Numbered from the stretch's first letter, positions 1-22,755 are shown. The stretch: DNA of 42,116 nucleotides from Escherichia phage sortsyn (MN850623.1); one strand, 5' to 3'. A program made the numbers and translations. The notes: generated by a model not told the origin, from the sequence alone.

Positions 1-22
1 CACGCCGATCTCCCTGGCGAAC

Positions 23-2125
23 ATGATCTCCCAAGCCGTGACCGATGCCGGGAAGGGCGTCGGGCTGGTGGATGAAAGCACCCAAGCGCCAACCATCACG
101 CCTGGGGGGATCCCTGGTCTGGCCCCTACTGACAAATACGCGCAGATCGGGACCCTGATCGGCGATATGCTCGCGCCGCTACCTGGCCCGCGTAAGGCTC
201 AGGCGGCGACCGAACTCCTCGGACTGGTTCGTGAAGCGCCGGACGCGACCAGCTTCGCGACCCGTCTCGCCGATATGACCCAGAACTGGATCGCGGCTCC
301 GGCGGCTCGTGCTGTGCCTGGCGCGATCGCCGCTGGTCGTGGGGACCCGGAGGAGACGCTGACGAATATCGCACTAGCGCCCGCTGGCGAGGCTGTGGGC
401 CGCGCTGTTATCGGTGGCGCTGGTAGGCTGTGGAATGCGCTCAGGGGCGGCGAGGGGGCCGCAGGTGGCGCAGCAGACGCAGCAGCGGACGCAACCCGAT
501 CCACCCAGGCGACCGAGGCGGGAATCTCCGACGCTGTGGCTCGTGATGCGAGCAAGTTCCGACTGACCCCCGATCAGAATGTGCAAGGCGCGAACGGTGA
601 AACCCTCCGCGCTTCTGACGAGATGATCGACCTCGCGAACATGGCGGACGTGGACAAAAAGCTGATGAAAACCGCCCGCGATCTGGGGATGGAGGATCAA
701 CTGACCCCGGCGGCTTATGCGCGTGATACGCAGTTTAGGACCACGCTCCAGCAGCTTGTAAGCCGGAAAAGTTCCAACCTGGAAACTCAGCAGATTAACG
801 GGATCTCTCGCTTAGGTGAGAAGGCCGACGAGCTGATCGACAGCATGAGCAGCATGAACGCGAACACGCTCGATCAGGCATTCAGCCAGCGCACGAAGGC
901 AGTGATCGACGACCTCGCGGCCCAGGCTGACGACGTTTACACGAAGATCGGGCAGAAGCTACCGAAGAACGCCCAGATCGACGCAAACAACACGCTTAAC
1001 CACCTGTGGGCGAAAGCGGACGTAGACGGGCTGGGAACGCTGGACCCTGTGGAGCGTAAGGCGCTGGACTGGCTCCAGCCTGTAAACGACCAGATGGGGC
1101 CACCGACTTATTCCCGTCTGGATAAACTCCGCCAGCAGGTCGGCGCGGCGATCAGCAAGAAAGAGGGGCCGTTTAAGGACTCCGACCGGGCGGCGCTTAA
1201 ACAGCTTTACGCACGACTGACCGAGGACCAGGAAGCGGTCGCGGCTCGCTACGGGGCGGCGGACGACTGGGCCGTGGGTAAACAGCTTGTTAAGCGTCGT
1301 AAGGACCTGGAGACGCTGGCGCGTGATGCGCTGGGGAAAGATCTCGACGGCTCGATCTCCGGCAAGGTCCAGAACGCGATCTTAAACCTGGGCAAAAAAG
1401 GCGGCAGCGCTCGCGACTGGGACAAGCTGATGGCGGCAACCCCGGAGAGCATCAAACAGGATGTAGTCGCTAATGCGCTGGAGCGTACCCTGGGCGCACG
1501 TAGCGCCCGCGATACCTTCGCGATCCCCGGCTTCGTGGACTGGTACAAGACCGCCCAGGCTAACGGGACGTTAGGAAACGTCATGCAGCACCTACCGCGC
1601 CAGCAGCGCCAGCGCCTCATGCAGATCTACCGCGTGGCGAACGGGATCGACCGGGCGAAACGCTTTACCACGACGACGGGATCGATCTCCGACTTCGTGA
1701 AGCGATTCGACGATCCGGGCGCTGGTGGCGTGTTGTCCAAGCTGTACGGGGCGGCGGGATGGTTAGGGAAACACGTCGCAGCATACGCGGCAGCAGGTCC
1801 GGCAGGTAACGCAGCAGTAGCCGCAGCGTCGGCAGCGGCCCGATCTCGTGTTCCGCGATCTGTTCTTGCGGACAACGTGCTTTCTGGTGAAAACTTCAAT
1901 AAACTGTTACAAGCCGCAGCCGCGCAGAGTTCCGGGAAGCTGACCCCAGCGGGCCGGACGTTCGTCCGAGAGGCCGAGGAAGCGGCGGCAAACTCGCCGG
2001 AGTGGAAAGCCTTGATCGAGGCCATGACCCCGGAGGAGAAAGCAGCCGTTAACCGCGCCGGGATCGTCGGATTCCTTTCCGGTACTGGCGGGCAAGCGGC
2101 AGCAAGCGACCAGCAGCAACAATAA
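23..2125 (+). CDS. Virion ejection/DNA-transfer protein, C-terminal portion (gp16-like position); 5'-partial, frame open back to base 2
   Basis: Long Ala/Gly/Gln-rich ORF directly upstream of the tailspike; reading frame is open from window base 2 with first ATG at 23; continues in frame from the ORF that runs off the 3' end of the window. Confidence 0.55.
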   Translation: MISQAVTDAGKGVGLVDESTQAPTITPGGIPGLAPTDKYAQIGTLIGDMLAPLPGPRKAQAATELLGLVREAPDATSFATRLADMTQNWIAAPAARAVPGAIAAGRGDPEETLTNIALAPAGEAVGRAVIGGAGRLWNALRGGEGAAGGAADAAADATRSTQATEAGISDAVARDASKFRLTPDQNVQGANGETLRASDEMIDLANMADVDKKLMKTARDLGMEDQLTPAAYARDTQFRTTLQQLVSRKSSNLETQQINGISRLGEKADELIDSMSSMNANTLDQAFSQRTKAVIDDLAAQADDVYTKIGQKLPKNAQIDANNTLNHLWAKADVDGLGTLDPVERKALDWLQPVNDQMGPPTYSRLDKLRQQVGAAISKKEGPFKDSDRAALKQLYARLTEDQEAVAARYGAADDWAVGKQLVKRRKDLETLARDALGKDLDGSISGKVQNAILNLGKKGGSARDWDKLMAATPESIKQDVVANALERTLGARSARDTFAIPGFVDWYKTAQANGTLGNVMQHLPRQQRQRLMQIYRVANGIDRAKRFTTTTGSISDFVKRFDDPGAGGVLSKLYGAAGWLGKHVAAYAAAGPAGNAAVAAASAAARSRVPRSVLADNVLSGENFNKLLQAAAAQSSGKLTPAGRTFVREAEEAAANSPEWKALIEAMTPEEKAAVNRAGIVGFLSGTGGQAAASDQQQQ

Positions 2126-2152: not shown

Positions 2153-4405
2153 ATGGAGAACACAATGGCCCGCGACGTATACGCTGATATTGGTATGCCT
2201 TCGACGCCTTTCCTACGTCTGGACCGCTTCGCGGCGCTGGTCAACGGGAAGATCTATGTAGGCGTGAAAGATACCGACCCGCTGAACCCAGCGAACCAGA
2301 CCCAGGTCTTTGTCGAGGACGAGGACGGAACGCTGACGCCAATCCCGCAGCCAGTACGGACCAACGTCTCCGGCTATCCGGTCTGGAACGGTCAAGTAGT
2401 CAAACTGATCACCAAGATCGAATCATCCATGAAGGTGATGGACGCGAACGACGTCCAGCAATTCTATTTCGGGAACCTGTTCAAATATGATCCGGTCCAG
2501 ATGTGGAACCTTCTCACCTCGCCGACTGGCTGGGAGTACGTGGGGACGAATTACGGCGTTTTGAAAGAGTCGATTCAGGGCTGGATCACTCCTTTTCAGT
2601 TCGTCGGGAAAGCGCCATTCACCAGCGTGTCCGCAGCCATCCAAACCATGTTTGACACGGCTCAGGCCCAAAAGCTGGCAGTCTGGGCCATTGGCTGGGA
2701 GGGAACGCTGGACGGCAACGTGACCGCGACGGATATCCTCATCATGGGGGGAACGTGGAAAGGTACGCCGGACTTTTTCATGGACAATTCCACGCTGAAA
2801 GGCGCGACCATCAAAAACGCCCGTATTCGCGTATGGGGCGGCGACGTAAGGATCCGCGATTGCCTGTTTGACGGCAAGCCGACCACGAGCAAGGTCGCAA
2901 GCGTAATGATGCAAGCCCTACCGAAAAACGCGACTGTGGAAGTCACGGAGAGCGAGTTCCGCAATGGCCTTTACGGCATCTTGCAGCAGGGGACCGGGGA
3001 ACTCGTCACGCGTGGCCTGTATCGTAACTTGTCGTTTTACGACATGGGCGGCGACGGGATCGAGCTTAACGTGGTCCAGCGCCACTACGACGACGGATGC
3101 GTGATCGAAAATATCTACCTGGAGAACATCGACTCCACCGGACAGGCTCCGATCAACCCGTCCAACTGGGGGATCGGGATCGGCGTCGCTGGTCAATCTC
3201 CGTATGGTATCGACACGCCGGACGAGAACTTCGCGAAGAACATCACGATCCGCAACGTGACGGGCGTCGGCGTCCGCCAGCTTGTTCACTTCGAAATGGT
3301 CCGCGACTCCGTGATCGAGAACATCAACGGCGACCCGGATCAGAACGTGTCTAACGGCTCCGGCCTGACGCTGGCGACGGTCCTCTGTTATGGCTCGCGC
3401 CGCGTGTCGATCGATGGAGTTCGCGGGGAGCCGATCGTCCAGTCCGGGACCCTGGCCTCCGACGTCCGCGTGGTTATGCTGGAGTGGGGGACTAACGCCG
3501 GAGTGGGCGCTCGTGGTCCTTGCCAGGACATGACCGTGAGGAACGTCTATTCCAAGACCGGGCGCTTTTACGCTGGCGTGGGTACGGAAAAGGCCGGGGC
3601 AACCAACCGTTGCCGATTCAGTAACATCAACGTGGCTAAATTCTCCGTTTTCGGCGTGGCTACCGAACTGGATTTAAACGATATCTCCGGCGATATCTTC
3701 GACGCGATCGGGGATGATTCCAGCGGCGGGACGCCTTCGAATGGTTATATCGCTGGCGGTCGCACCGTGTTACGCATGAATAATGTGAACTTCGGCGCGT
3801 ACCCGGATCAGGGCTGGAGCCGTTGCGCATACAGCCAGATTGATTGCGTTAATTCGAACGTGTTCGCCCGTCCGTACCCTCGTTCGGGGACTAACGGCGG
3901 CGTAGGCGCTGAAATGCAGCCCTCTAACCACACTTACCTGATCCCTACTCCTGACCAGATGGACGGCGTAGGGATCTGGGATGGTAACGCGTTCCCGACC
4001 GGGCGCGAGTTCATGGAGGGCGATCTCCTGGTCCGCAACGATGGCAAGATCTTTGCCGTCGAGACGTCCGGCGCATACCTCCCGGCGGTCGCAGAATTGC
4101 AGATTAAAGCGACGGCAGCGGGCCAGACCTACCTCGCGCAAAATTACGCGATGGCTGGCAACAAGTCGGATCAGGTCTGGTTTTATAAGACCCCACTGAC
4201 GCAGGGGACCCGCATCACGATCCCCGGAGCCGGGGCTGGCGGCGCGGCGCTTAACACGGTGATCACTCGCGCACCGTACAGCACCAACCCAAGCAACCCG
4301 ACCGCAGAGATCAGGATCGACATTGCGGACGCTATCGTGACTGGAACCGTGGCGGGCGTTCAACTGGCGGCAACGAAGCCGATCTCCTTCCGAACTCCGG
4401 TATAA
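2153..4405 (+). CDS. Tailspike protein: P22-type head-binding N-terminal domain plus parallel beta-helix receptor-binding/depolymerase domain
   Basis: N-terminus (VNGKIYVGVKDTDPLNPANQTQVFVEDEDG...YPVWNGQVVKLIT) matches the P22 gp9 head-binding domain pattern as recalled; central region has beta-helix-like repeats (NITIRNVTGVGV, VIENINGDP, MTVRNVYSKTG). Confidence 0.9.
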   Translation: MENTMARDVYADIGMPSTPFLRLDRFAALVNGKIYVGVKDTDPLNPANQTQVFVEDEDGTLTPIPQPVRTNVSGYPVWNGQVVKLITKIESSMKVMDANDVQQFYFGNLFKYDPVQMWNLLTSPTGWEYVGTNYGVLKESIQGWITPFQFVGKAPFTSVSAAIQTMFDTAQAQKLAVWAIGWEGTLDGNVTATDILIMGGTWKGTPDFFMDNSTLKGATIKNARIRVWGGDVRIRDCLFDGKPTTSKVASVMMQALPKNATVEVTESEFRNGLYGILQQGTGELVTRGLYRNLSFYDMGGDGIELNVVQRHYDDGCVIENIYLENIDSTGQAPINPSNWGIGIGVAGQSPYGIDTPDENFAKNITIRNVTGVGVRQLVHFEMVRDSVIENINGDPDQNVSNGSGLTLATVLCYGSRRVSIDGVRGEPIVQSGTLASDVRVVMLEWGTNAGVGARGPCQDMTVRNVYSKTGRFYAGVGTEKAGATNRCRFSNINVAKFSVFGVATELDLNDISGDIFDAIGDDSSGGTPSNGYIAGGRTVLRMNNVNFGAYPDQGWSRCAYSQIDCVNSNVFARPYPRSGTNGGVGAEMQPSNHTYLIPTPDQMDGVGIWDGNAFPTGREFMEGDLLVRNDGKIFAVETSGAYLPAVAELQIKATAAGQTYLAQNYAMAGNKSDQVWFYKTPLTQGTRITIPGAGAGGAALNTVITRAPYSTNPSNPTAEIRIDIADAIVTGTVAGVQLAATKPISFRTPV

Positions 4406-4440
4406 AAAAAAGGGGCCTTAATTGGCCCCTTCTTCTTCTC
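4406..4440. terminator. Bidirectional rho-independent terminator between tailspike (+) and DUF2829 gene (-)
   Basis: A8 run, stem AGGGGCC/GGCCCCT, T-rich tail. Confidence 0.7.
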
Positions 4441-4458
4441 TCGATTCCGCGTTAACAA

Positions 4459-4743
4459 TCAGCGTAAGATCGTCCAGTCATTGGCGAACAGGTCGCCCTG
4501 TGATGGGACCCAACCCGGTTGCATTACGCCTTGCGCATTTTTAAGATCAAGATGCGGGGCGATCGTAAATTCGCCAGTGATCCCGGCCTTTGCATAATCA
4601 CTACCCGGTCGCGGCTCGTTTACGGTATACCCGCCAGCCTTGATCACGAATTGATTAGCGCCATTCCATCCAGCGCGGGCAATTTTATAACCTTCCTTCA
4701 CTGCGATCAGAGCTTCGCTAAAGCTAAGGCCGGACTTAATCAT
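4459..4743 (-). CDS. DUF2829-like small phage protein
   Basis: 94 aa with GWNG...WVPSQGDLFANDW signature recalled for DUF2829; overlaps the upstream HTH gene by 8 nt. Confidence 0.5.
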   Translation of the reverse strand: MIKSGLSFSEALIAVKEGYKIARAGWNGANQFVIKAGGYTVNEPRPGSDYAKAGITGEFTIAPHLDLKNAQGVMQPGWVPSQGDLFANDWTILR

Positions 4744-4954
4744 GATTCACTCCATACTCGATCAGGTCTGCGATCGACACGTCCAGGGCGGCAGCGAGTC
4801 GGCAGAGGTTAGTAATATGTGGCAACTCGTGCCCGTTCTCGTATCGGCTCAACTGGTGGGCGATCATGCCTACGCGTTCCGCCAGATCTTTTTGCTGGAT
4901 GCCTTTCGCCTCTCGGACCTGCTTCACGAGGCAAACGGGCTTTAATGTTGCCAT
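4736..4954 (-). CDS. XRE/Cro-type helix-turn-helix transcriptional regulator
   Basis: HTH pattern QKDLAERVGMIAHQLSRYENG; AAGGAG Shine-Dalgarno 7 nt before the second ATG (4954); ORF track start 4969 is the alternative. Confidence 0.75.
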   Translation of the reverse strand: MATLKPVCLVKQVREAKGIQQKDLAERVGMIAHQLSRYENGHELPHITNLCRLAAALDVSIADLIEYGVNHD

Positions 4955-4986
4955 GATCGGCTCCTTCATTGGTTAACGTCTCCGTG

Positions 4987-5015
4987 ATTATTCATTAAAC
5001 CGTTATCTAAATCAA
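4987..5015 (-). promoter_or_regulatory. Putative sigma70 promoter for the HTH-DUF2829 pair
   Basis: Minus-strand -35 TTGATT, 17-bp spacer, -10 AATAAT; overlaps the 3' end of the HNH gene. Confidence 0.4.
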
Positions 5016-5452
5016 TCTGGGTTAAGCGCTTCACCGTTAACCAGATGCCACTCTTTATGATGCCTCTCGCAGAGCCAGCGGACCTCTAACGGGCGATCGT
5101 AGTCGTCATGGTGTCCCACTACCTTCTCCGCTCCGCAGACCTCACACGGCCCCCTCGTTAGCTCTCCGCGCCTTAACGCGTTATAGACCAGATTGTGGGC
5201 CTTTCGCTTCTTTGGGTGTTTTGTGTGGTAGGAGGATTTTGTGGCGTTCGCCTTCTCCCTACCCGGTCCGGCCTGGTACTCCTTCACCTGTTCGATGATC
5301 CGCTCCTTCCTGACCGGATCGGCGTGATAGTACGCCCGGTAATTGTTGTTCTTGCACTGGCGACAGCGCGAGTCCCTTCCGTCCTTCTTGCTCTTGTTCC
5401 TGTGGAACTCCTCCAGCGGCTTCGATTCGTGACAGATGGCGCATTGTTTCAT
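5012..5452 (-). CDS. HNH endonuclease
   Basis: CxxC...CxxC zinc ligands and HNH core VVGHHDDYDRPLEVRWLCERHHKEWH; very basic; AGG/AGA-rich codon usage unlike neighbours. Confidence 0.7.
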   Translation of the reverse strand: MKQCAICHESKPLEEFHRNKSKKDGRDSRCRQCKNNNYRAYYHADPVRKERIIEQVKEYQAGPGREKANATKSSYHTKHPKKRKAHNLVYNALRRGELTRGPCEVCGAEKVVGHHDDYDRPLEVRWLCERHHKEWHLVNGEALNPD

Positions 5453-5495
5453 CTCGTCGGCTCCTGGGAGGATCGGCCCCGAAGGGCCTCACCCG

Positions 5496-6047
5496 TTAAA
5501 ACGGAATGTCATCATCGAAATCAAGCGGAGGCTCCCCGCCATTAGACGCTCCAGAAGCGCCTCCAGACGACGCAGGACCCGACCCGCTACCCTTGCCCGG
5601 ATTTTGCGAATTAGACGCGCCACGGCCCGGAGAATTGCGAGAATTGCCACCGCCGCCGGAGTGGGTAGGTCCATTCCCCCCAGACTGGCCTCCCTCTTTC
5701 TTCCCGCCGAGCATTTGCATAGTGCCGCCGACGTTCACGACGACCTCAGTCGTGTACTTCTCGACGCCCTGCTGGTCCGTCCACTTGCGCGTCCTAAGCT
5801 GGCCCTCAATGTAAACCTGTGAACCCTTGCGCAGATACTCCCCGGCGACCTCCGCCAGCTTCCCGAACAATACGACGCGATGCCATTCCGTTTGCTCTTT
5901 CATTTCGCCCGTTTGCTTATCGCGCCAGGATTCAGAGGTGGCGATCGTAATGTTCGCCACCGCTCCACCTGACGGCATGTAACGCACTTCGGGATCCTGG
6001 CCCAGATTGCCGACCAGAATCACCTTGTTAACGCCGCGTGATGCCAT
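5496..6047 (-). CDS. ssb: Single-stranded DNA-binding protein
   Basis: OB-fold N-terminus ([42 protein letters not shown]), Gly-rich linker, acidic C-terminal tail DDDIPF. Confidence 0.95.
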
Positions 6048-6049
6048 GT

Positions 6050-6769
6050 TTAGAAGTCCTCAATATTCGGTTTATCTTCCGCCGCTGGCGCTTCCTGCTG
6101 TGGCTCTACCGGGGCGGCGGGCTGTTCTTGTGCCGGGGCATTATCGGCGGCTTTTTTCTTCTGGACAACCGAGGCCGGATTAAATCCTTTCGACTCGCTG
6201 GCGCGGAGAGCCGCCTTGCGGGTAATGTGCCAGTCACGGACAACCTTCACGGAGGCTTGATCGTCTGCCAGGGCGTGGACAACTTTCCCCACGGCTTCGT
6301 CCAGCTTTTGCACGTCCTCGATCCCTTCCAGATCTGCGATCCACTGGCGGGCGGTTTTCTTCGTCGCGTTCCCGTCGTCGTCTGCCTGGGTGATGCCGAA
6401 CAGCGCCGCCAGGTGATAGCGTCGGGCATAGGTGATCGCCGAGCCGACAGAGTGAGCCGCCGCGCCCTTACCGAACGAGAGAGGCATTTCCATAATCGCC
6501 GTCATGTACTCGCCGGACTCGTGGAGGACCATCGTCTCCAGCGGTAACACGAGCATGTTATTTTTTTCGGTGCAGGGCATAGGCGTCTGAACGACGATCA
6601 GACCGTTCGACTCAAGCGCCGGGCGAATGGTGGCGATGAAGGATCCCAAGTCCGCATACCAGTTATGCAGGTGATTATTTTCCGTGTTCTTTTTGGCTTC
6701 CGACATCATAGCGATACGGGCCTTTACCATTGCCGGGACGATCGCGGCGCGTGATTCTGAAAATTCCAT
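6050..6769 (-). CDS. erf: ERF-family single-strand annealing recombinase
   Basis: Motif [18 protein letters not shown] matches the Erf core (P22 Erf: TSSYARKYCLNGLFGI as recalled). Confidence 0.8.
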
Positions 6770-6771
6770 AA

Positions 6772-7812
6772 TTACACCTCTTTAAAATATTCTTTGTAAC
6801 GTTGTTGTAAGTAAATCGGAGTGGACAGCGCGATCTCCTCTTGCCCGTTCGCATAGGCGGGCCACACATCACGCTCGCGGCAGTGTTTGAGGACCTGGAG
6901 CGCCGTCTTGTACTGACCGCGACCGACGAGCAACTGTTCCGGCGTTAAGCGATTCATGAGGGCCAGCCACGGCTCGTCTTTTTCCTGTACGAGTAACTTC
7001 GTACCGTTCGGATCCTGCTGGTAGGCCAGCTTGAAACAATCATGTTGTAAAGCCATTTTGCACCAGTAGCCGAGATCGTGGGCCAGTCGCCCGAACTTCT
7101 CCGGCTCCGCGCTTTGCGTCGTCTTAAAGTCGATAATCTCCCCGACGTCCGTCACGCGGTCGAGCCGGACCTTAACGGGAACGCCGTCGATAATACAGAA
7201 CAGCGACAACTCCGGGACCCCCGTCTCAATGATCCGGCGGTAATTGTGGTTAGCCAGCAGAACGTCGCGCATTGAGTGAACGCGGTCCCAGTCCTTCGCC
7301 GGGACGATCTCGCGACCGTTCGCCTCTTTGATGGCGTTCGCCTCGATCTCGTGCCAGATGTGGAGCACTTCGTCCGGGGCCTGGACAGCGCGACACATCG
7401 CGATCAGTTCTTCGGCGGTTTTGTTGGAGTAGCCCTTCTGACCGCGATCCTTTAACCAGCTTTGCATTTTCGCTACAGAGGTGATCAGGTCCGGGAAGTC
7501 GTCCGGGTTAGGCAGACGGAAGAACTCACGAGCGAAGCGATCCGGCTCAAGTAACATCGTGTGGGAAGTGGTCCCGAACGTGAGCGGCTTCTGGGCGGAA
7601 TTGAGTTTTTTTGTTGCGGCTTCCTGTGCCTTCTGGAAACGCCAGGCGGCGGGGCATTTGCTGTAAATGGTCCAGAGGCTCGACCCGGTAATGTAGATCT
7701 CGTCCTCGTGGTATTGCTCATTGGTTAACTGGTCGGCGCTCCGGGCATCGACAAACATCGAAGCGGCTACGTCGTAGGCCGGGAGCGCTGGGATCAATCC
7801 GTTCGTTTGCAT
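6772..7812 (-). CDS. PD-(D/E)XK family exonuclease (RecE/exonuclease VIII-like, DUF3799-type)
   Basis: Nuclease core VRLDRVTDVGEIIDFKT with downstream Y..K; 4-nt ATGA overlap with erf start suggests translational coupling. Confidence 0.6.
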   Translation of the reverse strand: MQTNGLIPALPAYDVAASMFVDARSADQLTNEQYHEDEIYITGSSLWTIYSKCPAAWRFQKAQEAATKKLNSAQKPLTFGTTSHTMLLEPDRFAREFFRLPNPDDFPDLITSVAKMQSWLKDRGQKGYSNKTAEELIAMCRAVQAPDEVLHIWHEIEANAIKEANGREIVPAKDWDRVHSMRDVLLANHNYRRIIETGVPELSLFCIIDGVPVKVRLDRVTDVGEIIDFKTTQSAEPEKFGRLAHDLGYWCKMALQHDCFKLAYQQDPNGTKLLVQEKDEPWLALMNRLTPEQLLVGRGQYKTALQVLKHCRERDVWPAYANGQEEIALSTPIYLQQRYKEYFKEV

Positions 7813-7851
7813 TGTTGGGACCTCTCACTGGTGAATGTGAGAGGCATTAAA

Positions 7852-8319
7852 TCATTCTTTCGTGATGTTTGCAACGGGTAATTTAAGATAATATTCGAGA
7901 GCAGCCAGGCCAGCCTCGCAGCCCCACGCGACGGCAGTCCAGCCACCACGCGCCCGCGCCCGTTCGAGGATCTCCTTTTGCTCCGGCTTGAGCCGTGATT
8001 TGCTCCGGCTGTTCCGCTTCAACTCGATCAGCGCGAAGCCATAGCCCCCGCGAGGCTCAAGGATCACCCAGTCCGAGATCCCAGCCAGTCGTCCGAGCGC
8101 GTTCAACTTCGCCCCGTAGCGGGGATCGCTGGAGCCGCCGCTCTCGTTTACTGGGTGGAACGCCAGCAGCGCGTCGGGATCAGTGAGGGGATCGCCGTAG
8201 ATCTCCCGGATATTGCTCGCCATGTTTTGCTGTTCGACGTCCTCGTGTGGCGAGTAGGTCGGGATGTGGTCCAGATAGAACTCGCGCCAGAACTCAGTCT
8301 TTTTATTCAGTACGGACAT
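7852..8319 (-). CDS. VRR-NUC domain nuclease
   Basis: GISDWVILEPRGGYGFALIELKRNSRSKSRLKPEQKEIL fits the VRR-NUC D..E.K core pattern. Confidence 0.65.
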   Translation of the reverse strand: MSVLNKKTEFWREFYLDHIPTYSPHEDVEQQNMASNIREIYGDPLTDPDALLAFHPVNESGGSSDPRYGAKLNALGRLAGISDWVILEPRGGYGFALIELKRNSRSKSRLKPEQKEILERARARGGWTAVAWGCEAGLAALEYYLKLPVANITKE

Positions 8320-10362
8320 TTAAAACTCCTCATTCATGAAAATTTTGTTAGTGATAACGTCTTTACCCTTGCCGATCTTCCGGTGGCTGACCTTAAGCGG
8401 GGCCATGAAGTACGGGGCGAACTCTAATACCTGCTGGGGCGTCCGGCATTTCTTGATCGTGGCCCTCATTTTGCCGTCCAGGACGTGCTTAAGGATGCCA
8501 TTATGGACCCATTCCTTTTTCGCCGCTGGCGAGTCGCTACCGGGCCAAAATACTTGCCATGCCACAAACTGGTCCCCGTCCTTCTCCAGTTCGTACCGGA
8601 AGGCGATCCCCCCAGTCCCTCGCGCTAATTCAATTCTGAACCCTCTTACGGTCGCGTAGTCGTCGCGGCTGTACGTGGTCCGGCTTAAGTTCTTGTTAGG
8701 ATCTACGAGCGAGTTCCCGCAGCAGCGGCAGATCCTGGCTACTATGTCGTTTTGCGCCCCGCATCCCTTTTGGACCACTTTCCGCCCGCTGGCGTCCTTC
8801 CAGTCGTCGCAGGTGATGAACTGGAAAAAGTGTTCGCAGCGATCGCCGTTCTCGTCCACGTAGCGGCAGCGTCGGGCGTGTTTGCCGTTGAGCGTAGGAT
8901 GGCCCGCCTTGCGACACTTCGGACAGTCTAACTCTAATTCGCCTTTGCTCTCGTCGGCGCTGTGCTGATATGCCTCCAGCAGCGGGGAGAAGTACAGGGA
9001 TCCGAGTTCGTCCAGCGTCCCGGCGTAGTCGAGAACCAGGTGATCCTCTTTCGTCACCCCGGCGGCGATGTGGAACGGCTTAAGGATTCGCATCCCACGG
9101 CCTAAAAGCTGGGTTAGGAGCGTGAGGGAGCCGATCTTCCGCAGGATCACGGACGTGTCCCAGAACGGGACGTTAACGCCAGTCGTTAGGGCGTTAACCT
9201 GGAAAATGAACTTGATCTCCCCGGTATTGGCGCGGCGCAAAATGTCCATGCGCTTCTTGCCCGTCGTGTCGTCCGTGATGATGGCGTAAGGCGTACCAGG
9301 GGGAAGGGCCTCCGCCGCCTGTTTGCAGTGTCTCACGCCCGCACACGTCACTAACACGCCGTTCCTGTGCTGGGCGATGGCGTAGACCTCCGCCATGATC
9401 TCATGAGTGAGCTTTTTCTCTTTCAGGATCGCCTTTTGCATGGCGTCCATATCGGAGTCCGTGAACTCCTTAATGCCGTCCTCACCCGTCGATCGCCACT
9501 GGTCGAGGTTGTAGTGGAGATTGGAGATCCCGAAGTGAGTCGGAACGACCGCGCCGACGCTCACGAGGTACTCCGTCGAGATCTCGCAGACCTTTTCACG
9601 CCAGAATCCGGGCTGTTCGAGGTCGGGCTGGATGATGGACTCCACGCCCCTGTAAGGCGTCCCAGTGTAGCCGATAATGCGGAGTTCCTTCCCGTACACT
9701 GACCGGGCGCGGGCCTGTAACGTTCGGATGATGATCGTATAACTGGAGCGACCCGCCTCGATCATCTCCTCGTATGTCTCGCCCTTATGCTCGCCGATAA
9801 TGGTCGGATCCCCGAAGCCGTCGAGGATAACGGTCCCGTTATCGTCCCGCAGGTACTCCGGGACCACGCGCTCCTCCGAGCGGATCAGGTCCTCTATGTT
9901 GACGTGATGGCATTCATCGATCAGCAGGAACAACGGCGCGTAATGGGCGAGGGGCTGGCCTGGGCGGATCCCTCCGATCACTGTACCCTCGGAGCCGACG
10001 ACGATCGGGAAGTGTGCAGACTTGCGGCCTAAGCTGGCGCAGTAGATCGAGGAGTTTACGCCGAAGTTCCGCAACTCCTCAAAGTCCTGATCGATGATCT
10101 CACCCTGGCGGGACAGGATCATGGCGGGGAATCCCATATCCCTGATCCGGCGGGCCAGCATGGAGATCATGATGGTTTTCCCGGCGCTCACGGCGGCGTC
10201 CACAATGACCGGGCCGGGATATTTACGGATAGCCTTCGCGCAAGCCTCATATGCGACGAACTGGTGATCGTATGGCGTTACGGGCATATCACCGAGGGCG
10301 CGGAGAATGGCGTCGCGATCGAGGGCCGCGATCTGCCTTTCTAATGTCTCGACCATTTCCAT
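8320..10362 (-). CDS. Superfamily 2 DNA helicase (DEAH-type) with C-terminal Cys-rich zinc-binding extension
   Basis: Walker A AAVSAGKT, motif II LLIDECHH, Cys clusters CPKCRK...CRCCGNS. Confidence 0.85.
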   Translation of the reverse strand: MEMVETLERQIAALDRDAILRALGDMPVTPYDHQFVAYEACAKAIRKYPGPVIVDAAVSAGKTIMISMLARRIRDMGFPAMILSRQGEIIDQDFEELRNFGVNSSIYCASLGRKSAHFPIVVGSEGTVIGGIRPGQPLAHYAPLFLLIDECHHVNIEDLIRSEERVVPEYLRDDNGTVILDGFGDPTIIGEHKGETYEEMIEAGRSSYTIIIRTLQARARSVYGKELRIIGYTGTPYRGVESIIQPDLEQPGFWREKVCEISTEYLVSVGAVVPTHFGISNLHYNLDQWRSTGEDGIKEFTDSDMDAMQKAILKEKKLTHEIMAEVYAIAQHRNGVLVTCAGVRHCKQAAEALPPGTPYAIITDDTTGKKRMDILRRANTGEIKFIFQVNALTTGVNVPFWDTSVILRKIGSLTLLTQLLGRGMRILKPFHIAAGVTKEDHLVLDYAGTLDELGSLYFSPLLEAYQHSADESKGELELDCPKCRKAGHPTLNGKHARRCRYVDENGDRCEHFFQFITCDDWKDASGRKVVQKGCGAQNDIVARICRCCGNSLVDPNKNLSRTTYSRDDYATVRGFRIELARGTGGIAFRYELEKDGDQFVAWQVFWPGSDSPAAKKEWVHNGILKHVLDGKMRATIKKCRTPQQVLEFAPYFMAPLKVSHRKIGKGKDVITNKIFMNEEF

Positions 10363-10369
10363 TTATTCC

Positions 10370-10399
10370 TTGTAATATCATTAAAGCGTGATTTATAGT
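10370..10399 (+). promoter_or_regulatory. Putative sigma70 promoter in the divergent helicase/primase control region
   Basis: -35 TTGTAA, 18-bp spacer, -10 TATAGT, 25 nt before the AGGAGG SD of the primase-like gene. Confidence 0.4.
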
Positions 10400-10424
10400 A
10401 ACCGGGAAAACTCAGGAGGGCAAG

Positions 10425-11243
10425 ATGGCAATTTATAAAAAAGAGGACGTTCTCGCCGCAATGCCCGGCAAGTGGGAACAGGCGCTCCTCGATCTGTGCG
10501 GCTGGGACCGCAAGGCGTTTAACGGCAATCACCAGCCTTGCCCGATATGCGGCGGGACGGACCGCTTTCGATGGGGCCACAAACAGGCCACGAAGAAGGC
10601 CGAGGGCTTCGGCTACTGTTCCGGCTCCTGTGGTGGCGCTCGTGATGGCATGTTTTGGTTTATGACCAGCAGATCGCAGCCATTCAACGAGGCGATCAAC
10701 GACCTGGGCGACTGGATAGGCGGACTTACCCCGGAGAAGCGGGAAACGATCGTCAAAGAGGCCCGCAAGTATGCCCGCCAGCAGGACAAGCCCGCGCAGG
10801 ACTGGGAGCTGACCCCGGAGGACGTGGAAAAGGTCATGAGCAAAGGCGAAATGCGCGACGGCTTCCTGTATGTTCCATGCGCTCGTCCACTGGGGGGATC
10901 GCTGGGGCCGTGGTGCAACGTGGCGAAGATCGGCTCCGACAGGTCTGTGGTGTTTGCCGCTGGTGGCCCGACGTGGGGCGCGGTAGGGCTGATCCACCCA
11001 GCGCCGGACGCTCCGGTGTATCTGGTGGCGGATCCGGTCCATGCCGTGAACGTGGCGGCGAGAGGGGAGGCGGAGGTCTGGCTGACGTTCCGGCCTATGA
11101 ACGCGATCCAGGCGTCGGCGATCTACGATGGCGATCGGGAGATCCGGTTCGTCTACACTGACCCGGACGAGGTTTTCCTGTACGGCTACGAGAGGACGGG
11201 GAGGCCATGCGTCGGCGGACATCTTGCGGGGGCGTTCGGGTAA
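10425..11243 (+). CDS. Putative DNA primase (primase-helicase type zinc ribbon, Toprim-like remainder uncertain)
   Basis: HQPCPICGGTDRFRW...YCSGSCGG resembles the zinc-binding domain of P4/T7-type primases; AGGAGG SD 6 nt upstream of ATG. Confidence 0.5.
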   Translation: MAIYKKEDVLAAMPGKWEQALLDLCGWDRKAFNGNHQPCPICGGTDRFRWGHKQATKKAEGFGYCSGSCGGARDGMFWFMTSRSQPFNEAINDLGDWIGGLTPEKRETIVKEARKYARQQDKPAQDWELTPEDVEKVMSKGEMRDGFLYVPCARPLGGSLGPWCNVAKIGSDRSVVFAAGGPTWGAVGLIHPAPDAPVYLVADPVHAVNVAARGEAEVWLTFRPMNAIQASAIYDGDREIRFVYTDPDEVFLYGYERTGRPCVGGHLAGAFG

Positions 11244-11248
11244 AAAAA

Positions 11249-11270
11249 AGCCCCGGCGAGGGGCTTAATG
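11249..11270. terminator. Hairpin with A8 run upstream; strongest as a minus-strand terminator
   Basis: Stem GCCCC/GGGGC preceded by AAAAAAAA, followed only by TTAATG on the plus strand. Confidence 0.35.
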
Positions 11271-11323
11271 CGTCGATACCAGCGGCGCTAATGTTGCTAC
11301 AGGGAAACGTGAGAAGCCATAAA

Positions 11324-11366
11324 TAGCACTTTTTGCTAAAACACAAAACAGTTAATCAATTATCGT
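11324..11366 (+). promoter_or_regulatory. Promoter cassette copy A: palindrome TAGCACTTTTTGCTA plus -10-like region (weakest copy, no TG)
   Basis: Palindrome 11324-11338; upstream of dam. Confidence 0.4.
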
Positions 11367-11396
11367 TAGTCACCACCAACCAAAAAAGGGCAGCAG

Positions 11397-12038
11397 ATGA
11401 AAGACGAGAAAGACACCACCACGATCGACCATGTGGACGGCATGACCGAAGCGGAACGCGCAGCGGCAGACGTGACCACTGTTAGCGGTCGCCGCTTCAA
11501 CAAGTCCAAGACGCCGGACGCTATCCGCCAGAAGTGGCAGACCCCGCGCTGGCTGTTCGACTGGGCTGTGAAGCGCTTCGGGCAGTTCGGGATCGACGTC
11601 GCAGCGGAGAAAGCGAACGCGCTTTGTGACGTCTATCTGGACGAGAAAACGGACGCCCTCAAGGACGGCGTAGACTGGGGCGCGGAGGGCGGGCTGGCCT
11701 GGTGCAATCCTCCTTACGCCGAGCCGCTTCCGTGGATCGTGAAGGCTATCCAGCAAGCGAAGGATCGCGACGTTACGACCGTTTTCCTCCTGAACTCCGA
11801 CGCGTCCACGGCGTGGTTTAAGAAGGCGCTGGACGCCGGGAGCCTGGTTATTCACATCACCAGCGACGGCGAGAACTCCGGGCGCGTGGCGTTCGTGAAG
11901 GCAGGGACCGAAGTCGCGGGCAAGAAGAACAGCAAGCCGTCCGTGATGTTCGTTATCAAGCCGAAGAAGCGCGGACCGATCAAGACTGAATATCTGACCC
12001 AGGCGGAAATGATGTTCGAAGGCAAAACGATGATTTAA
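11397..12038 (+). CDS. dam: Phage Dam-family DNA N6-adenine methyltransferase
   Basis: WQTPRWLFDWAVKRFGQFGIDVAA...AWCNPPYAEP...TAWFKK: NPPY catalytic motif and the phage Dam (N6_N4 MTase) signature. Confidence 0.9.
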   Translation: MKDEKDTTTIDHVDGMTEAERAAADVTTVSGRRFNKSKTPDAIRQKWQTPRWLFDWAVKRFGQFGIDVAAEKANALCDVYLDEKTDALKDGVDWGAEGGLAWCNPPYAEPLPWIVKAIQQAKDRDVTTVFLLNSDASTAWFKKALDAGSLVIHITSDGENSGRVAFVKAGTEVAGKKNSKPSVMFVIKPKKRGPIKTEYLTQAEMMFEGKTMI

Positions 12039-12054
12039 CCGAGAGGACCCAGAG

Positions 12055-12636
12055 ATGATTATTTATGCACCAGTAAGCGCCTTACGCGCTCACCAACTCA
12101 CCAAAGGCCAGCAGGACGTCCGCTACTACCTGAACGCGCTCCACTTCATCGGGAACCGGATCCGCACGTCTAACGGTCATGTTTGCATGGAAAGCACTCA
12201 TAAGCTGGTAAACGCGCCGGAGGAGGGGATTATTCTCTCAATCTCCACGCCACCGACTGGGCGGATCTTCTCCGCCGTGATCGATACCGAAGCGGGGATC
12301 GTGTACTGGCTGGACATTCCGGCAGACAAGCCGAAGGACCTCGAAGAAGTGGACCACAAAAAGGCCCGCGTCGCTGTGGGGACCGTGGACATTGTGGAGG
12401 CTAATTATCCGAACGTGGACGCGTTACTGAACAAGGCCCGCGAGAACTCGAAGGCCGTCCACGAGATCGGCGTGGCGACGCCTTACCTCGGAATGGTCGA
12501 GAGGCTGGCGAAGAAGTTCGGGATCAAGATGCCTTTTGCGAAACTGAACTTTAACGGCGCAGCGGAGCCGATCCGCGTGAACCTGACCACGCCGGACGGC
12601 GAGGCAACCCTGATCATTATGCCCGCGAGAGTGTAA
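12055..12636 (+). CDS. Hypothetical protein
   Basis: 193-aa ORF, coding-like composition, same strand block, 16 nt after dam. Confidence 0.5.
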   Translation: MIIYAPVSALRAHQLTKGQQDVRYYLNALHFIGNRIRTSNGHVCMESTHKLVNAPEEGIILSISTPPTGRIFSAVIDTEAGIVYWLDIPADKPKDLEEVDHKKARVAVGTVDIVEANYPNVDALLNKARENSKAVHEIGVATPYLGMVERLAKKFGIKMPFAKLNFNGAAEPIRVNLTTPDGEATLIIMPARV

Positions 12637-12639
12637 GCA

Positions 12640-12873
12640 ATGAAATATAACGACGGTCACACTAATAGCCGCTGGGCCATCTTCCAGGAGAAGGTCGCGG
12701 ACGAGTTAATGGCGCGTAAGCTGGTGGCCTCCCGTGAGGAGGCCGAGCACTTCGCCGAGGCGCTCGATCTCTCTTTCGAGCAGGACTATAACCCGGTACA
12801 TATGGACCAGTGGGACGCGCTGATCAAGCGTGACGCCGACGAGTACGAGAAGGATCAGAACCGTGAAGCATAA
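12640..12873 (+). CDS. Hypothetical small acidic protein
   Basis: 77-aa ORF, D/E-rich, tightly packed in operon. Confidence 0.45.
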   Translation: MKYNDGHTNSRWAIFQEKVADELMARKLVASREEAEHFAEALDLSFEQDYNPVHMDQWDALIKRDADEYEKDQNREA

Positions 12874-13603
12874 GGCGATTTTCCTGTTTAACCTGACCCG
12901 GATCATGGTGGACAAGTGGCTGGAGGCTGGCGTGGAATGCTGGATGTATGACGGGCAGCACGAGCCAGGGATCCACCCAGACGCCGACGAGCCGAACCTG
13001 ATCCGTGTGGGCCGGATGTTCGACGCAGACAACACGGAAGTAGAAGCGCTCAGAATCGCCGATGAAGTCGGGCCGGGCGTGATCTTCGTGGCCTCCTTTG
13101 CTGAATGCACCGATCTAACCTGTACCGGGGCCAGATGGTGGGAAGCGAAGCGCAAGAAGGATCCGCGCTTCCAGGAGAAGGCCGTCGCGCTGGCGAAGAT
13201 GGTCGAGCAGGTGGCTACGTTTGCCGGGTACGAAAACGGCGACTATGAGGACAAAACGCTGGTCCCCTGGATGCTGGAGAATCCGAAGATCTCCCGGCTC
13301 TCGACCATGTGGCGACCTTGCGATCACTGGTTCCACCCCTACAACTTCGGCGGCTACTTGCCGGAGGATCACCAGCATAGCCTCTACCCGGAGATCTACC
13401 CAGCGCGGGACGCGTACCCGAAGCAGACGGGGATCTGGTGCGGTGGCGGCTTCCGCTTCCCGGCATTCCAGAGCGTCCAGGCTGTTAAGGATAATCCGGG
13501 CTGGTCGAAGCTGGGCGGATCCAGCACACGAACGAAGAACATCCGAAGCGCCACGCCCGAAGGCTTCGCCGTCGCGGTCTACATCGAAAACGCTCCATTC
13601 TGA
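12863..13603 (+). CDS. Hypothetical protein with conserved Cys/His/Trp-rich segments
   Basis: GTG at 12863 preceded by AAGGA, overlapping the upstream stop (ORF track start 12830 is the alternative); no family motif recognised. Confidence 0.55.
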   Translation: MKHKAIFLFNLTRIMVDKWLEAGVECWMYDGQHEPGIHPDADEPNLIRVGRMFDADNTEVEALRIADEVGPGVIFVASFAECTDLTCTGARWWEAKRKKDPRFQEKAVALAKMVEQVATFAGYENGDYEDKTLVPWMLENPKISRLSTMWRPCDHWFHPYNFGGYLPEDHQHSLYPEIYPARDAYPKQTGIWCGGGFRFPAFQSVQAVKDNPGWSKLGGSSTRTKNIRSATPEGFAVAVYIENAPF

Positions 13604-13606
13604 CAC

Positions 13607-13630
13607 AAGGCCCTCCGGGGCCTTTTTTGC
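13607..13630 (+). terminator. Rho-independent terminator
   Basis: Stem AAGGCCC/GGGCCTT then TTTTGC. Confidence 0.7.
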
Positions 13631-13633
13631 GTA

Positions 13634-13677
13634 TAGCACTTTTTGCTAAAGCAATGCCGATTATCCTTTGTTATTAT
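13634..13677 (+). promoter_or_regulatory. Promoter cassette copy B: palindrome TAGCACTTTTTGCTA plus TGtTATTAT extended -10
   Basis: Palindrome 13634-13648; TG 13669-13670; hexamer 13672-13677. Confidence 0.5.
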
Positions 13678-13705
13678 TCTTTCACACCAACACGAGGACG
13701 ACGAA

Positions 13706-13933
13706 ATGAAACAGACATTACTCCACACCAAAACAAACAAGGCTCAGATCGTGAACCCGCTGTTACTGAAACAGGCGCACATCCTGATCGAGACAGCGAT
13801 GATCCTCCGTAACCGCCTCAAGATGTACGCGGCGGGGCCACTGGCAAAGGCAGCGCTGACCCGCGAAGCGGTCCAGGCGGAGAACGACGCCCGCGAACTT
13901 ATCCGGGGGGCGTATGGCTACCCGGCCCACTAA
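13706..13933 (+). CDS. Hypothetical protein
   Basis: ATG at 13706 downstream of promoter cassette copy B (ORF track lists 13643). Confidence 0.4.
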   Translation: MKQTLLHTKTNKAQIVNPLLLKQAHILIETAMILRNRLKMYAAGPLAKAALTREAVQAENDARELIRGAYGYPAH

Positions 13934-14192
13934 GGCCACGCGCCGGGAGATCTGGGAGGCGGCTCAGGCCGCTAACCTGGACGAGATGATCAGTAAAGTG
14001 TCCGCCGTGTTTGGCAAAGACGCGATCGCCGACATCTCGATCGAGACTCCAGACGGCGAGATGTACCTGAACAACCCGGACCCGCATCACTACCGCGTCA
14101 CGCCGGGAACCAAAAGCGAGAAGGGCGACCTTAAGCGGGCGCTGGACTCAACGAAAAACCGGAAGCACCTCAAAGGAGGATCTCGTGGGTAA
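13914..14192 (+). CDS. Hypothetical protein
   Basis: 92-aa ORF overlapping the upstream gene by 20 nt. Confidence 0.4.
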   Translation: MATRPTKATRREIWEAAQAANLDEMISKVSAVFGKDAIADISIETPDGEMYLNNPDPHHYRVTPGTKSEKGDLKRALDSTKNRKHLKGGSRG

Positions 14193-14577
14193 AGTAACAG
14201 CGCAGATTATCGGATGGACTGACGAGCAGGACGCGGAACTGACCCGCCTCGCCGGGACCATGCCGCCGCACGAACTGGCGAAGCGCATCGGTCGCAACTT
14301 CCGCCAGATGCAGGTCCGGGCCTCTAAGCTGGGCCTCTCCCTGGCGTATAACCGGACGTACACGCAATGGACGACGGAGGAGGACCGGAAGCTGGTCCGC
14401 TTCTGGGAGGGACTTCTGACCGATGAGGATCTGGACGAACTGGTGATCGCCACTGGTCGCCGGGTGATAGTACCGACTGAACTCACCCACGCGCATGTCG
14501 CGAACTGGCTCAACAAATCGCGTCCGTCAATTCGCGGACGCCTGGCAAAATTCAAGAAAGAGGGGAAAATCGCATGA
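14185..14577 (+). CDS. GcrA-like DNA-binding transcriptional regulator (two WT[DT]E[QE]D repeats)
   Basis: WTDEQDAELTRLAG...HELAKRIGRNFRQMQVRASKLGLS resembles the GcrA N-terminal domain as recalled; second repeat WTTEEDRKLVRFWEG; GTG start with AGGAGG SD. Confidence 0.5.
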   Translation: MGKVTAQIIGWTDEQDAELTRLAGTMPPHELAKRIGRNFRQMQVRASKLGLSLAYNRTYTQWTTEEDRKLVRFWEGLLTDEDLDELVIATGRRVIVPTELTHAHVANWLNKSRPSIRGRLAKFKKEGKIA

Positions 14578-14675
14578 ACAACTTACGCGGACACAAATAC
14601 GTTATATGGGGCGTAATCGCAGCAAGCGCCGCGCTGTGGGCTTTAATCGGTTTCGGCGTGTCGATGGTACTATAA
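14574..14675 (+). CDS. Small hydrophobic (single transmembrane helix) peptide, 33 aa
   Basis: ATGA start/stop overlap with upstream gene; MNNLRGHKYVIWGVIAASAALWALIGFGVSMVL; ends right before a terminator. Confidence 0.35.
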   Translation: MNNLRGHKYVIWGVIAASAALWALIGFGVSMVL

Positions 14676-14712
14676 AAAAAGGGCCGCTTAAAAAGCGGCT
14701 CCTTTCGTTTTA
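14676..14712. terminator. Rho-independent terminator, bidirectional
   Basis: A-run, stem GGGCCGCT/AGCGGCTCC, then TTTCGTTTT. Confidence 0.7.
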
Positions 14713-14773
14713 ACGCCAGAGATGATCTACAATGCCGGGGCAGTATACCGCACAATTTCACGAGGACAAAATT

Positions 14774-15538: not shown

Positions 15539-15568
15539 AAAAAGGGGGCCAACTGGCCCCCGATTTAT
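15539..15568. terminator. Rho-independent terminator, bidirectional, between convergent blocks
   Basis: A-run, stem GGGGGCC/GGCCCCC, then GATTTATT. Confidence 0.7.
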
Positions 15569-16902: not shown

Positions 16903-16947
16903 TGGAGGGATCCCTTTTAACAAGTGAGTGAACGCTAAAAGGGTAAA

Positions 16948-16976
16948 TGAAAAAAGAAAGGGCCGCAAAGGCCCTT
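16948..16976 (-). terminator. Rho-independent terminator immediately upstream of the lysis cassette
   Basis: Minus-strand stem GGGCC-TTTGC-GGCCC followed by TTTCTTTTTTC. Confidence 0.6.
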
Positions 16977-17000
16977 TTATGATTGATTGTTAAGTTATTG

Positions 17001-17312: not shown

Positions 17313-17317
17313 AATAT

Positions 17318-17928: not shown

Positions 17929-17969
17929 CTTCGACTCCTGGGTGGATGGCCCCCGAAGGGGCCGGGCTG

Positions 17970-18218: not shown

Positions 18219-18264
18219 CGTTATCTCTCCGGTAGTGGGCGACCCATTGCCGCCCGGTGAAAGA

Positions 18265-19340: not shown

Positions 19341-19367
19341 GTTCGCCTCCGTTGTTGTTCGTCTTTA

Positions 19368-22710: not shown

Positions 22711-22755
22711 CCACCACCGCCCGGTCGAGAGCCGGGCATCCTGGGAGGATCTACC

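Follow-up and report, generated by a model that had tools for sequence, protein, structure and literature searches.

Escherichia phage sortsyn: a P22/T1-type mosaic genome without recognizable integration or long-repressor genes

Organization of the genome

The DNA of Escherichia phage sortsyn analysed here (the window) is 42,116 bp long and has a G+C content of 59.0%. It has 60 called genes and an embedded o-spanin gene, a coding density of 94% and a largest non-coding gap of 253 bp. The gene for a gp16-like DNA-transfer protein spans the two ends of the window in frame (41260-42116 joined to 1-2125; 993 amino acids (aa), no internal stop), showing that the window is a closed circle cut within this gene. 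The main subjects of this report are the minus-strand block of recombination and replication genes at 4459-10362 (block A), the arrangement of the remaining genes around it, and the search for genes that could support lysogeny in a phage with a P22-like virion. The genes are arranged into four co-oriented blocks:

10362 to 4459, minus strand: block A, 8 genes
10425 to 15538, plus strand: block B, 9 genes
19340 to 15565, minus strand: block C, 9 genes and the embedded o-spanin gene
19481 through the window end to 4405, plus strand: block D, 34 genes

The blocks were delineated from the list of open reading frames (ORFs) and from a tblastn map of 60 proteins of Enterobacteria phage IME_EC2. The coding strand switches four times around the circle. 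When the orientations of the 60 genes were shuffled, the number of switches was 24.8 ± 3.1, and none of 100,000 shuffles reached four. The sign of the AT skew flips with the blocks, independently of ORF calling. The ORF list, the tblastn map, the shuffling and the skew all confirm the four alternating blocks, with the same boundaries, described in an initial annotation made from the sequence alone.

Block A contains the following genes (values after family names are E-values):

8320-10362, minus strand: SF2 (ResIII/Helicase_C) DNA helicase, first gene of the block (Pfam Helicase_C 5.7e-10, ResIII 6.6e-07)
7852-8319, minus strand: VRR-NUC-type nuclease (Pfam VRR_NUC 3.6e-4, under the gathering score; phrog_824 2.4e-39)
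6772-7812, minus strand: PD-(D/E)XK (RecE/exonuclease VIII-like) exonuclease (Pfam DUF3799 2.8e-18, PDDEXK_1 4.1e-08)
6050-6769, minus strand: Erf-family single-strand annealing protein (Pfam ERF 8.9e-20)
5496-6047, minus strand: SSB (Pfam SSB 5.4e-41)
5012-5452, minus strand: Endonuclease VII/HNH-like endonuclease (phrog_2340 endonuclease 2.9e-43, phrog_1035 endonuclease VII 7.9e-12)
4736-4969, minus strand: XRE/Cro-CI-type helix-turn-helix (HTH) regulator, 77 aa, HTH domain only (Pfam HTH_3 5.8e-14)
4459-4743, minus strand: Tad2-like (DUF2829, Thoeris anti-defence 2-like) protein, last gene of the block (Pfam Tad2-like 2.3e-22)

The helicase is 100% identical in aa sequence to gp17 of IME_EC2 and 48% identical to the helicase of the T1-like Tunavirus SH6; its nearest relatives beyond the clade are hundreds of Drexlerviridae proteins at 45-50%. 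The VRR-NUC-type nuclease has 36% aa identity to the VRR-NUC protein gp58 of SH6, which is likewise placed after the helicase. The exonuclease is 38.5% identical to exonuclease VIII of SH6. The Erf protein, already recognized in the initial annotation, is 35% identical to Erf of SH6 and 28% to Erf of the temperate P22-like phage CUS-3. The endonuclease at 5012-5452 is conserved in all relatives. The slot of the Tad2-like gene is variable, the gene being present in IME_EC2 and not detected in the other relatives.

The XRE protein, which the initial annotation did not mention, is the sole classical HTH protein found. Its gene is the penultimate one of block A and is not part of a divergent switch. 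It matches PHROG repressor and regulator families over their HTH portions only and falls under every NCBIfam cut-off. The protein is kept at the same position in Murrayvirus, Sortsnevirus and Skarprettervirus with 43-100% aa identity, and is most likely a Cro-like temporal regulator.

Junctions between the blocks

The blocks are separated by two divergent and two convergent junctions:

10363-10424, 62 bp: divergent helicase/primase gap, putative control region; sigma-70-like TTGTAA-18-TATAGT at 10370-10399, plus strand
19341-19480, 140 bp: divergent gap between block C and the AAA_25 gene, putative control region; sigma-70-like TTTACA-16-TATGCT at 19395-19368, minus strand
4406-4458, 53 bp: convergent junction of the tailspike gene and block A; hairpin at 4410-4431, sequence AAAAAAAAGGGGCCTTAATTGGCCCCTTCTTCTT
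15539-15564: convergent junction of blocks B and C; hairpin at 15544-15561, AAAAAAA-GGGGGCCAACTGGCCCCC-GATTTATT, 7 G-C pairs, scored on both strands

The divergence of the first two gaps agrees with the initial annotation; the control role that it assigned to them corresponds to one promoter-like site in each, at chance level. Sigma-70-like sites occur region-wide at the frequency expected by chance (8 found, 6.4 expected) and are weak evidence. As the matches are no commoner than chance, the scans serve as pointers only, and promoter use is treated here as inferred.

At both convergent junctions a G+C hairpin is situated between an A-run and a T-run, a form that fits a bidirectional intrinsic terminator. 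The junction at 4406-4458 occupies the position at which P22-like phages carry int and att; in CUS-3 the integrase gene and attL lie beyond the tailspike gene. The distance between the XRE gene and the tailspike stop codon ranges from 56 to about 500 bp in ten relatives.

Search for lysogeny and persistence genes

Every called gene and the ten longest antisense ORFs were compared with Pfam, and all genes without an adequate Pfam assignment were compared with PHROGs. No integrase, resolvase, large serine recombinase, excisionase, S24 peptidase or antirepressor was found in these scans of the called genes and long antisense ORFs, and the same scans found no ParA/ParB, protelomerase or plasmid Rep family among the window genes. 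A recombinase hidden in an antisense or shadow ORF was considered and rejected, the ten longest such ORFs giving no Pfam match. When Int, cI, cro, cII, N, Q, ant and mnt of CUS-3 were compared by tblastn with the window and ten relatives, only noise was obtained (best E = 0.24; E of at least 0.3 for Int). A CI/C2-type repressor, having an HTH together with an S24 or oligomerization domain and lying at a divergent immunity switch, was not found in the window, its sole XRE protein consisting of the HTH alone. Among ten regulators and orphans compared with NCBIfam, the XRE protein alone had matches, which were to HTH models and below the threshold. The coding density and the small size of the largest gap leave no room for an uncalled recombinase. 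Thus the profile searches of the ORFs for integrase, excisionase and repressor families produced nothing apart from the short XRE protein, in agreement with the initial annotation, which had noted the absence of an integrase and of a long CI-type repressor.

The only orphan of integrase size is a 313-aa protein:

24073-25014, plus strand: 313-aa orphan

Searches of Pfam, of the functionally annotated PHROG families and of PDB sequences gave no match to it. Its AlphaFold (AF2) model, with a pLDDT of 83.7, consists of long helices and a small C-terminal beta domain, and Foldseek found no PDB fold match to it below E = 1. The possibility that it is a divergent integrase was considered and rejected. 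The top Foldseek rows name RSV integrase and are noise (E = 1.1, probability 0.05, TM 0.08, root-mean-square deviation 18 Å). The protein is conserved across the clade: 56 homologue clusters with 41-88% identity, none with a recorded Pfam domain, were found in a collection of 5.8 billion proteins. The longest contig of these clusters is at most 42,847 bp; many are 40-42.8 kb and none is chromosome-sized.

Relationship to other phages

In a megablast search of 50,697 phage records, IME_EC2 (Murrayvirus EC2, NC_047742) was the top match, with 96-97% identity window-wide, followed by Lumpael, ST231, KMB41, sortregn, Sortsne, IME279 and Kc237 at 77-90%. The window and IME_EC2 align in six collinear blocks with 97.1% nucleotide identity over 95.6% coverage, giving 92.8%. 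Membership of the genus Murrayvirus calls for at least about 70% full-genome nucleotide identity to IME_EC2, its type species, and this value is higher; it falls short of the 95% over the full length that delimits the species Murrayvirus EC2. It is consistent with a separate isolate, sortsyn, for which 92.3% has been published: Escherichia phage sortsyn (MN850623) was described as a Murrayvirus of 42,116 bp with 61 ORFs and 59% G+C, 92.3% similar to IME_EC2 (PMC7552041).

The window and IME_EC2 are identical in the order of their genes, in the four strand blocks and in the junctions. The two genomes differ in four places: the window has a 609-bp HNH-endonuclease insertion between the TerL and portal genes, the 3' half of its Ig-like gene is divergent, the stretch 22752-23255 is replaced, and one stretch of the DNA-transfer gene is divergent. 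Two window ORFs are split in the IME_EC2 record, namely 19481-21169 (gp59 and gp58) and 39934-41259 (gp28 and gp27). Sortsne has one 1,320-bp gene in place of the gp28 and gp27 pair, so that the IME_EC2 split there is probably a sequencing or annotation error.

The four-block architecture is shared with Sortsnevirus (Sortsne, IME279 and Kc237) and Skarprettervirus (Skarpretter). These phages have the same gene sets, an XRE gene closing the helicase block and lysis genes on the strand opposite to the virion genes, and they lack an integrase. The nucleotide identity of the window is 78-80% to Sortsnevirus, and there is almost none to Skarpretter. Both genera differ from the window in having additional dUTPase and band-7 genes and another accessory gene after the XRE gene, and in Skarpretter a small insert on the reverse strand separates the portal and TerL genes. 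The four-block design, being common to three genera (IME_EC2, Sortsne and Skarpretter), is old and stable. The lineage and its exact organization are already known, as a named and published genus; the finding is correct and is not new.

The mosaic of P22/CUS-3-type and T1-type genes

The proteins of the window fall into two sets when compared with phages outside the clade. Identities to proteins of CUS-3 are 69% for the coat, 61% for the endolysin, 53% for the portal, 50% for the tailspike N-terminus, 41% for gp10, 40% for gp7, 39% for the scaffold, 37% for TerL and 37% for gp4. P22 itself has a coat with only 24.5% identity to that of the window, and the virion module can therefore be assigned to the CUS-3 type. 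The aa identities to proteins of SH6 are 48% for the helicase, 38.5% for the exonuclease, 36% for the VRR-NUC protein, 35% for Erf, 33% for Dam and 31% for the primase.

The likeness to the P22-like phages (Lederbergvirus; CUS-3 and P22) comprises the order and families of TerL, portal, scaffold, coat, gp4, gp10, needle, gp7, gp20, gp16 and the tailspike head-binding domain, a lambda-type S-R-Rz/Rz1 cassette and headful packaging. However, the window lacks int, xis, cI/c2, cro, cII, cIII, N, Q, O/P, the nin region and immI (mnt/ant); its lysis genes are inverted and lie 10 kb from the terminase, and its G+C content is 59%. With the Drexlerviridae (SH6) the window shares a primase gene divergent from the helicase and VRR-NUC genes (in SH6 a regulator gene lies between them), genes on both strands, a lysis cassette remote from the terminase and a virulent lifestyle. 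SH6 differs in its siphovirus tail and unrelated head, portal and terminase, and no virion protein of the window matches it at E <= 1e-3. The genes that are shared stand in rearranged order, and the AAA_25 protein of the window has no match in SH6. The T1-type set of helicase, VRR-NUC, exonuclease, Erf, primase and Dam, with divergent primase and helicase genes, is thus present, whereas the T1-type siphovirus virion module is not.

In the comparison of whole genomes, the virion half proved to be of P22/CUS-3 type and the replication/recombination half joined to it of T1 type. The genome is a fixed mosaic of P22/CUS-3-type packaging, virion and lysis genes and T1-type replication and recombination genes. 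The lambdoid immunity, integration and O/P replication region is absent, and Drexlerviridae-type genes stand in its place. The alternating blocks and the apparently misplaced lysis cassette on the opposite strand go with this non-lambdoid, T1-type, non-structural half.

Search for integrated or episomal copies

Among 5,426 complete E. coli genomes there was no megablast match to the 15.6-kb non-structural part of the window or to its 22-kb remainder, and the helicase-nuclease-exonuclease stretch had no match in them even at blastn sensitivity. The virion genes behave differently from the helicase block: relatives of the coat gene with about 69% nucleotide identity are found in prophages of 426 of the 5,426 genomes, and relatives of the helicase block in none. 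No match to positions 1-24000 of the window was found among the 72,556 plasmids of PLSDB.

A peptide-word scan of the GTDB species representatives, with one genome per species, found a single locus, the 42,764-bp contig QFQS01000013.1 in a metagenome-assembled genome (MAG). This contig, filed under a MAG of Cereibacter sphaeroides, is a complete relative of the phage with about 75% nucleotide identity. Because it has the length of a phage genome and is collinear from its first base, it represents a phage genome binned with a bacterium, likely as a binning artefact. IMG/VR contains six relatives, all on contigs of 41.1-42.7 kb. Where relatives occur on long contigs, these are always phage-sized (at most 42.8 kb). 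The initial annotation had pointed to an integrated copy in a host genome as contrary evidence; none was found in the 5,426 E. coli genomes or the GTDB representatives. The G+C content of E. coli is about 51%, and that of the window (59%) is atypical for a resident prophage of this host.

Gene content of blocks B, C and D

Block B encodes the primase and DNA-modifying enzymes:

10425-11243, plus strand: primase (Pfam Zn_Ribbon_Prim)
11397-12038, plus strand: Dam (Pfam Dam 1.5e-44)
12055-12636, plus strand: RusA-like protein (PHROG 2.7e-43)
12863-13603, plus strand: second methyltransferase (PHROG 3.1e-64)
14185-14577, plus strand: D5-like regulator-like gene (phrog_323 6.5e-17)
14732-15538, plus strand: Ig-domain (Hoc-like) gene (Pfam Ig_3 2.7e-10)
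within block B, plus strand: small hypothetical genes

The Ig-domain protein is annotated as a Hoc-like head decoration or tail protein, yet its gene stands far apart from the virion module and has its own hairpin in front (14681-14701). The 3' half of this gene is the most divergent coding stretch with respect to IME_EC2, the overall aa identity being 60%.

Block C carries the lysis cassette:

15565-19340, minus strand: six small genes followed by the lysis cassette
17318-17554, minus strand: ParE-like gene, 78 aa (Pfam ParE_like PF24732 5.4e-18)
16549-16902, minus strand: holin (Pfam Phage_holin_3_1, PF05106, 5.3e-09)
16083-16562, minus strand: endolysin, 61% identical to R of CUS-3
15565-16086, minus strand: i-spanin, Rz-like (Pfam DUF2514 1.6e-28)
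15633-15848, minus strand: embedded o-spanin, an Rz1-like lipoprotein with a LIGC lipobox

The cassette lies on the minus strand about 10 kb from the terminase gene and is convergent with the Ig-like gene of block B. It is complete, and its holin, endolysin, i-spanin and o-spanin genes correspond to the lambda-like cassette, transcribed convergently to the adjacent plus-strand block, that had been recognized initially. A 125-aa ORF without a family match (17551-17928, minus strand) precedes the ParE-like gene with a 4-bp overlap, a toxin-antitoxin-like arrangement upstream of the lysis cassette. A 202-aa ORF at 18292-18900, unannotated in IME_EC2, was also considered; it merely crosses the origin of the IME_EC2 record and matches only PHROG families of unknown function.

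Block D contains the packaging and virion genes:

19481-21169, plus strand: AAA_25 helicase/primase-like (RepA/DnaB-like) gene (Pfam AAA_25 9.3e-23)
after the gap 21170-21422, plus strand: about 15 small genes
27082-28704, plus strand: TerL (Pfam Terminase_3)
28744-29295, plus strand: ORF of the HNH insertion, 183 aa, endonuclease VII/HNH-like (phrog_1035 1.6e-19)
29326-31563, plus strand: portal (Pfam P22_portal 3.5e-156)
between portal and coat, plus strand: scaffold
34238-35497, plus strand: coat (Pfam P22_CoatProtein 2.3e-74)
within block D, plus strand: gp4, gp10, needle and ejection genes (Pfam P22_Tail-4, Phage_stabilise, Phage_tail_NK, Inj_translocase, P22_gp7)
41260-42116 joined to 1-2125, plus strand: gp16-like DNA-transfer gene (tblastn match to CUS-3 only, 32%; no Pfam match)
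2153-4405, plus strand: tailspike (P22 Head_binding domain 5.4e-34; 99.5% identical to gp25 of IME_EC2)

The Pfam matches to the portal, coat, gp4, gp10, gp26 needle, gp7, gp20 and tailspike head-binding domain bear out the P22-like virion genes reported in the initial annotation. The 609-bp insertion relative to IME_EC2 occupies 28705-29313, exactly from the TerL stop to the portal start, and looks like a free-standing homing endonuclease gene that invaded the packaging operon. In the N-terminal 285 aa of the gp16-like protein (41260-42114) there is a domain of lytic transglycosylase type (phrog_21143 1.6e-49; transglycosylase PHROGs down to 5.8e-17), which points to an ejection protein with a predicted peptidoglycan-degrading activity.

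The gap at 21170-21422, which follows the AAA_25 gene, is the 253-bp, A+T-rich stretch that forms the largest non-coding region. It has two hairpins and four GTTAAC palindromes, the genome-wide rate predicting about 0.1; in the genome as a whole there are 17 copies of CGTTAAC, with 3.3 expected. The equivalent gap of Sortsne has a hairpin and repeated GGTAAC-type motifs in place of GTTAAC. The gap is a candidate for an origin or operator array. IME-EC2 has P22-like headful packaging with a defined start (37875-38179) and a terminal redundancy of about 300 bp (PMC3896407). Mapped through the collinear block, this start would lie near 21.7-22.0 kb in the window, just past the gap.

The motif ATCATT-N5-GTGAT has three exact copies on the plus strand, where 0.35 are expected allowing one mismatch. 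They are situated at the boundary of the VRR-NUC and exonuclease genes (7851-7866), in the helicase/primase gap and a short way upstream of the gene that follows the 253-bp gap (21402-21417). The second copy is:

10377-10392: motif ATCATTAAAGCGTGAT in the divergent helicase/primase gap

Single copies are kept in more distant relatives. The motif may be an operator for the XRE protein.

Lifestyle of the phage

The window is very probably the complete circular genome of a strictly virulent Murrayvirus podovirus, a P22/T1-type mosaic that has no route to integration or stable repression. The absence of an integrase and a repressor is real and is explained by the membership of the sequence in a described lytic genus; it is not an odd P22-like prophage. 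IME-EC2 is one of the lytic phages reported from hospital sewage (PMC3896407), and the isolates of the study that lists sortsyn were described as lytic on MG1655 (PMC7552041). A latent period of 40 min and a burst of 100 were reported for the sortsnevirus Kc237 and for Kc166B, which is related to it (PMC8402661). The suggestion of a virulent mosaic lineage in the initial annotation is thus supported by the lack of lysogeny genes and of an integrated copy, by the P22/T1 mosaic and by the lytic growth of IME-EC2. Its alternative, a non-integrative lifestyle, gains no positive support, there being no partition or protelomerase gene in the window and no PLSDB match.

From the gene content and layout, promoter use, timing and the mode of replication may be proposed as follows. 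Host RNA polymerase would transcribe the four units outward from the two divergent gaps, and the two hairpin terminators would insulate the units at the convergent junctions. The primase, the two helicase-type proteins, SSB and the Erf/exonuclease/VRR-NUC/RusA-like/EndoVII set would carry out recombination-dependent replication and the production and processing of concatemers. Dam and the second methyltransferase would protect the DNA, and a P22-type headful terminase would package the concatemers. The holin-endolysin-spanin (S-R-Rz/Rz1) cassette would then lyse the cell and end the cycle.

Several observations weigh against a strictly virulent lifestyle. In addition to the conserved HTH protein of XRE type, the window encodes another regulator-like protein (14185-14577) and one with a ParE-like toxin domain, and no function can be assigned to about 20 of its small ORFs. 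The number of predicted promoters does not exceed that expected by chance. The term "lytic" in the papers is based on plaque isolation and growth curves, without a formal lysogeny test. The host searches compared nucleotide sequences in the case of the complete E. coli genomes and exact peptide words, which find close relatives only, in the case of the GTDB representatives. Short non-canonical repressors exist in other phages, for example the 99-aa C protein of P2.

Three other explanations were weighed. The phage might be temperate with an unrecognized lysogeny module, in which the short XRE protein is the immunity repressor and an orphan such as the 313-aa protein is a novel recombinase. The XRE protein is indeed present and conserved, CUS-3 and P22, to which the virion module is related, are temperate, and many small ORFs are unassigned. 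Yet the XRE gene is at the distal end of a 5.9-kb replication operon, and not beside a divergent promoter pair, the model of the 313-aa protein is helical and shows no recombinase-like fold, no integrated copy was found in any collection searched, and the position of int and att is occupied by a 53-bp terminator region, making this explanation very unlikely. That the module was lost through truncation or misassembly of the genome is hardly credible at all. The window does begin inside a gene, and two ORFs that are split in IME_EC2 are fused in it, but the end-spanning gene closes in frame over 993 aa without an internal stop, five independent genomes of 41.1-42.7 kb align collinearly with the window, and the largest gap of the window is 253 bp.

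Little credence can likewise be given to a plasmid-like prophage or carrier state that is maintained by the T1-type replication genes, with the ParE-like toxin and the upstream 125-aa ORF as an addiction module. This explanation draws on the ParE_like domain (5.4e-18) with its ORF overlapping by 4 bp, on the RepA/DnaB-like AAA_25 protein, on the contig of a relative binned into a bacterial MAG and on a homologue labelled Enterobacter kobei on a 1.5-kb contig. The binning of phage-length contigs into MAGs is, however, a common artefact. The Pfam and PHROG scans found no ParA/ParB, protelomerase or plasmid Rep family, PLSDB gave no match to positions 1-24000, there is no long repressor to silence lysis, and the relatives are reported to be lytic with a latent period of 40 min. 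In its broader form, this idea would have the whole clade persist without integration in a carrier or episomal state, the XRE protein damping the lytic promoters and the ParE-like toxin and its upstream partner stabilizing carriage. This too is improbable; if true, the phage would combine a P22-type head with a new kind of lysogeny that is not lambdoid.

It is more probable than such a carrier state that the genomes of Murrayvirus, Sortsnevirus and Skarprettervirus reflect a change from temperate to virulent life, a T1-type module having replaced the whole lambdoid early region of a CUS-3-type phage. This point was not found in the papers that could be searched. A strictly virulent lifestyle would favour such phages for purposes in which lysogeny has to be ruled out, for example therapy or biocontrol. 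In the module map, the P22/CUS-3-type part has hundreds of relatives in E. coli prophages and the T1-type part has none. The clade is a tidy example of a temperate-type virion that has ended up in a virulent genome.

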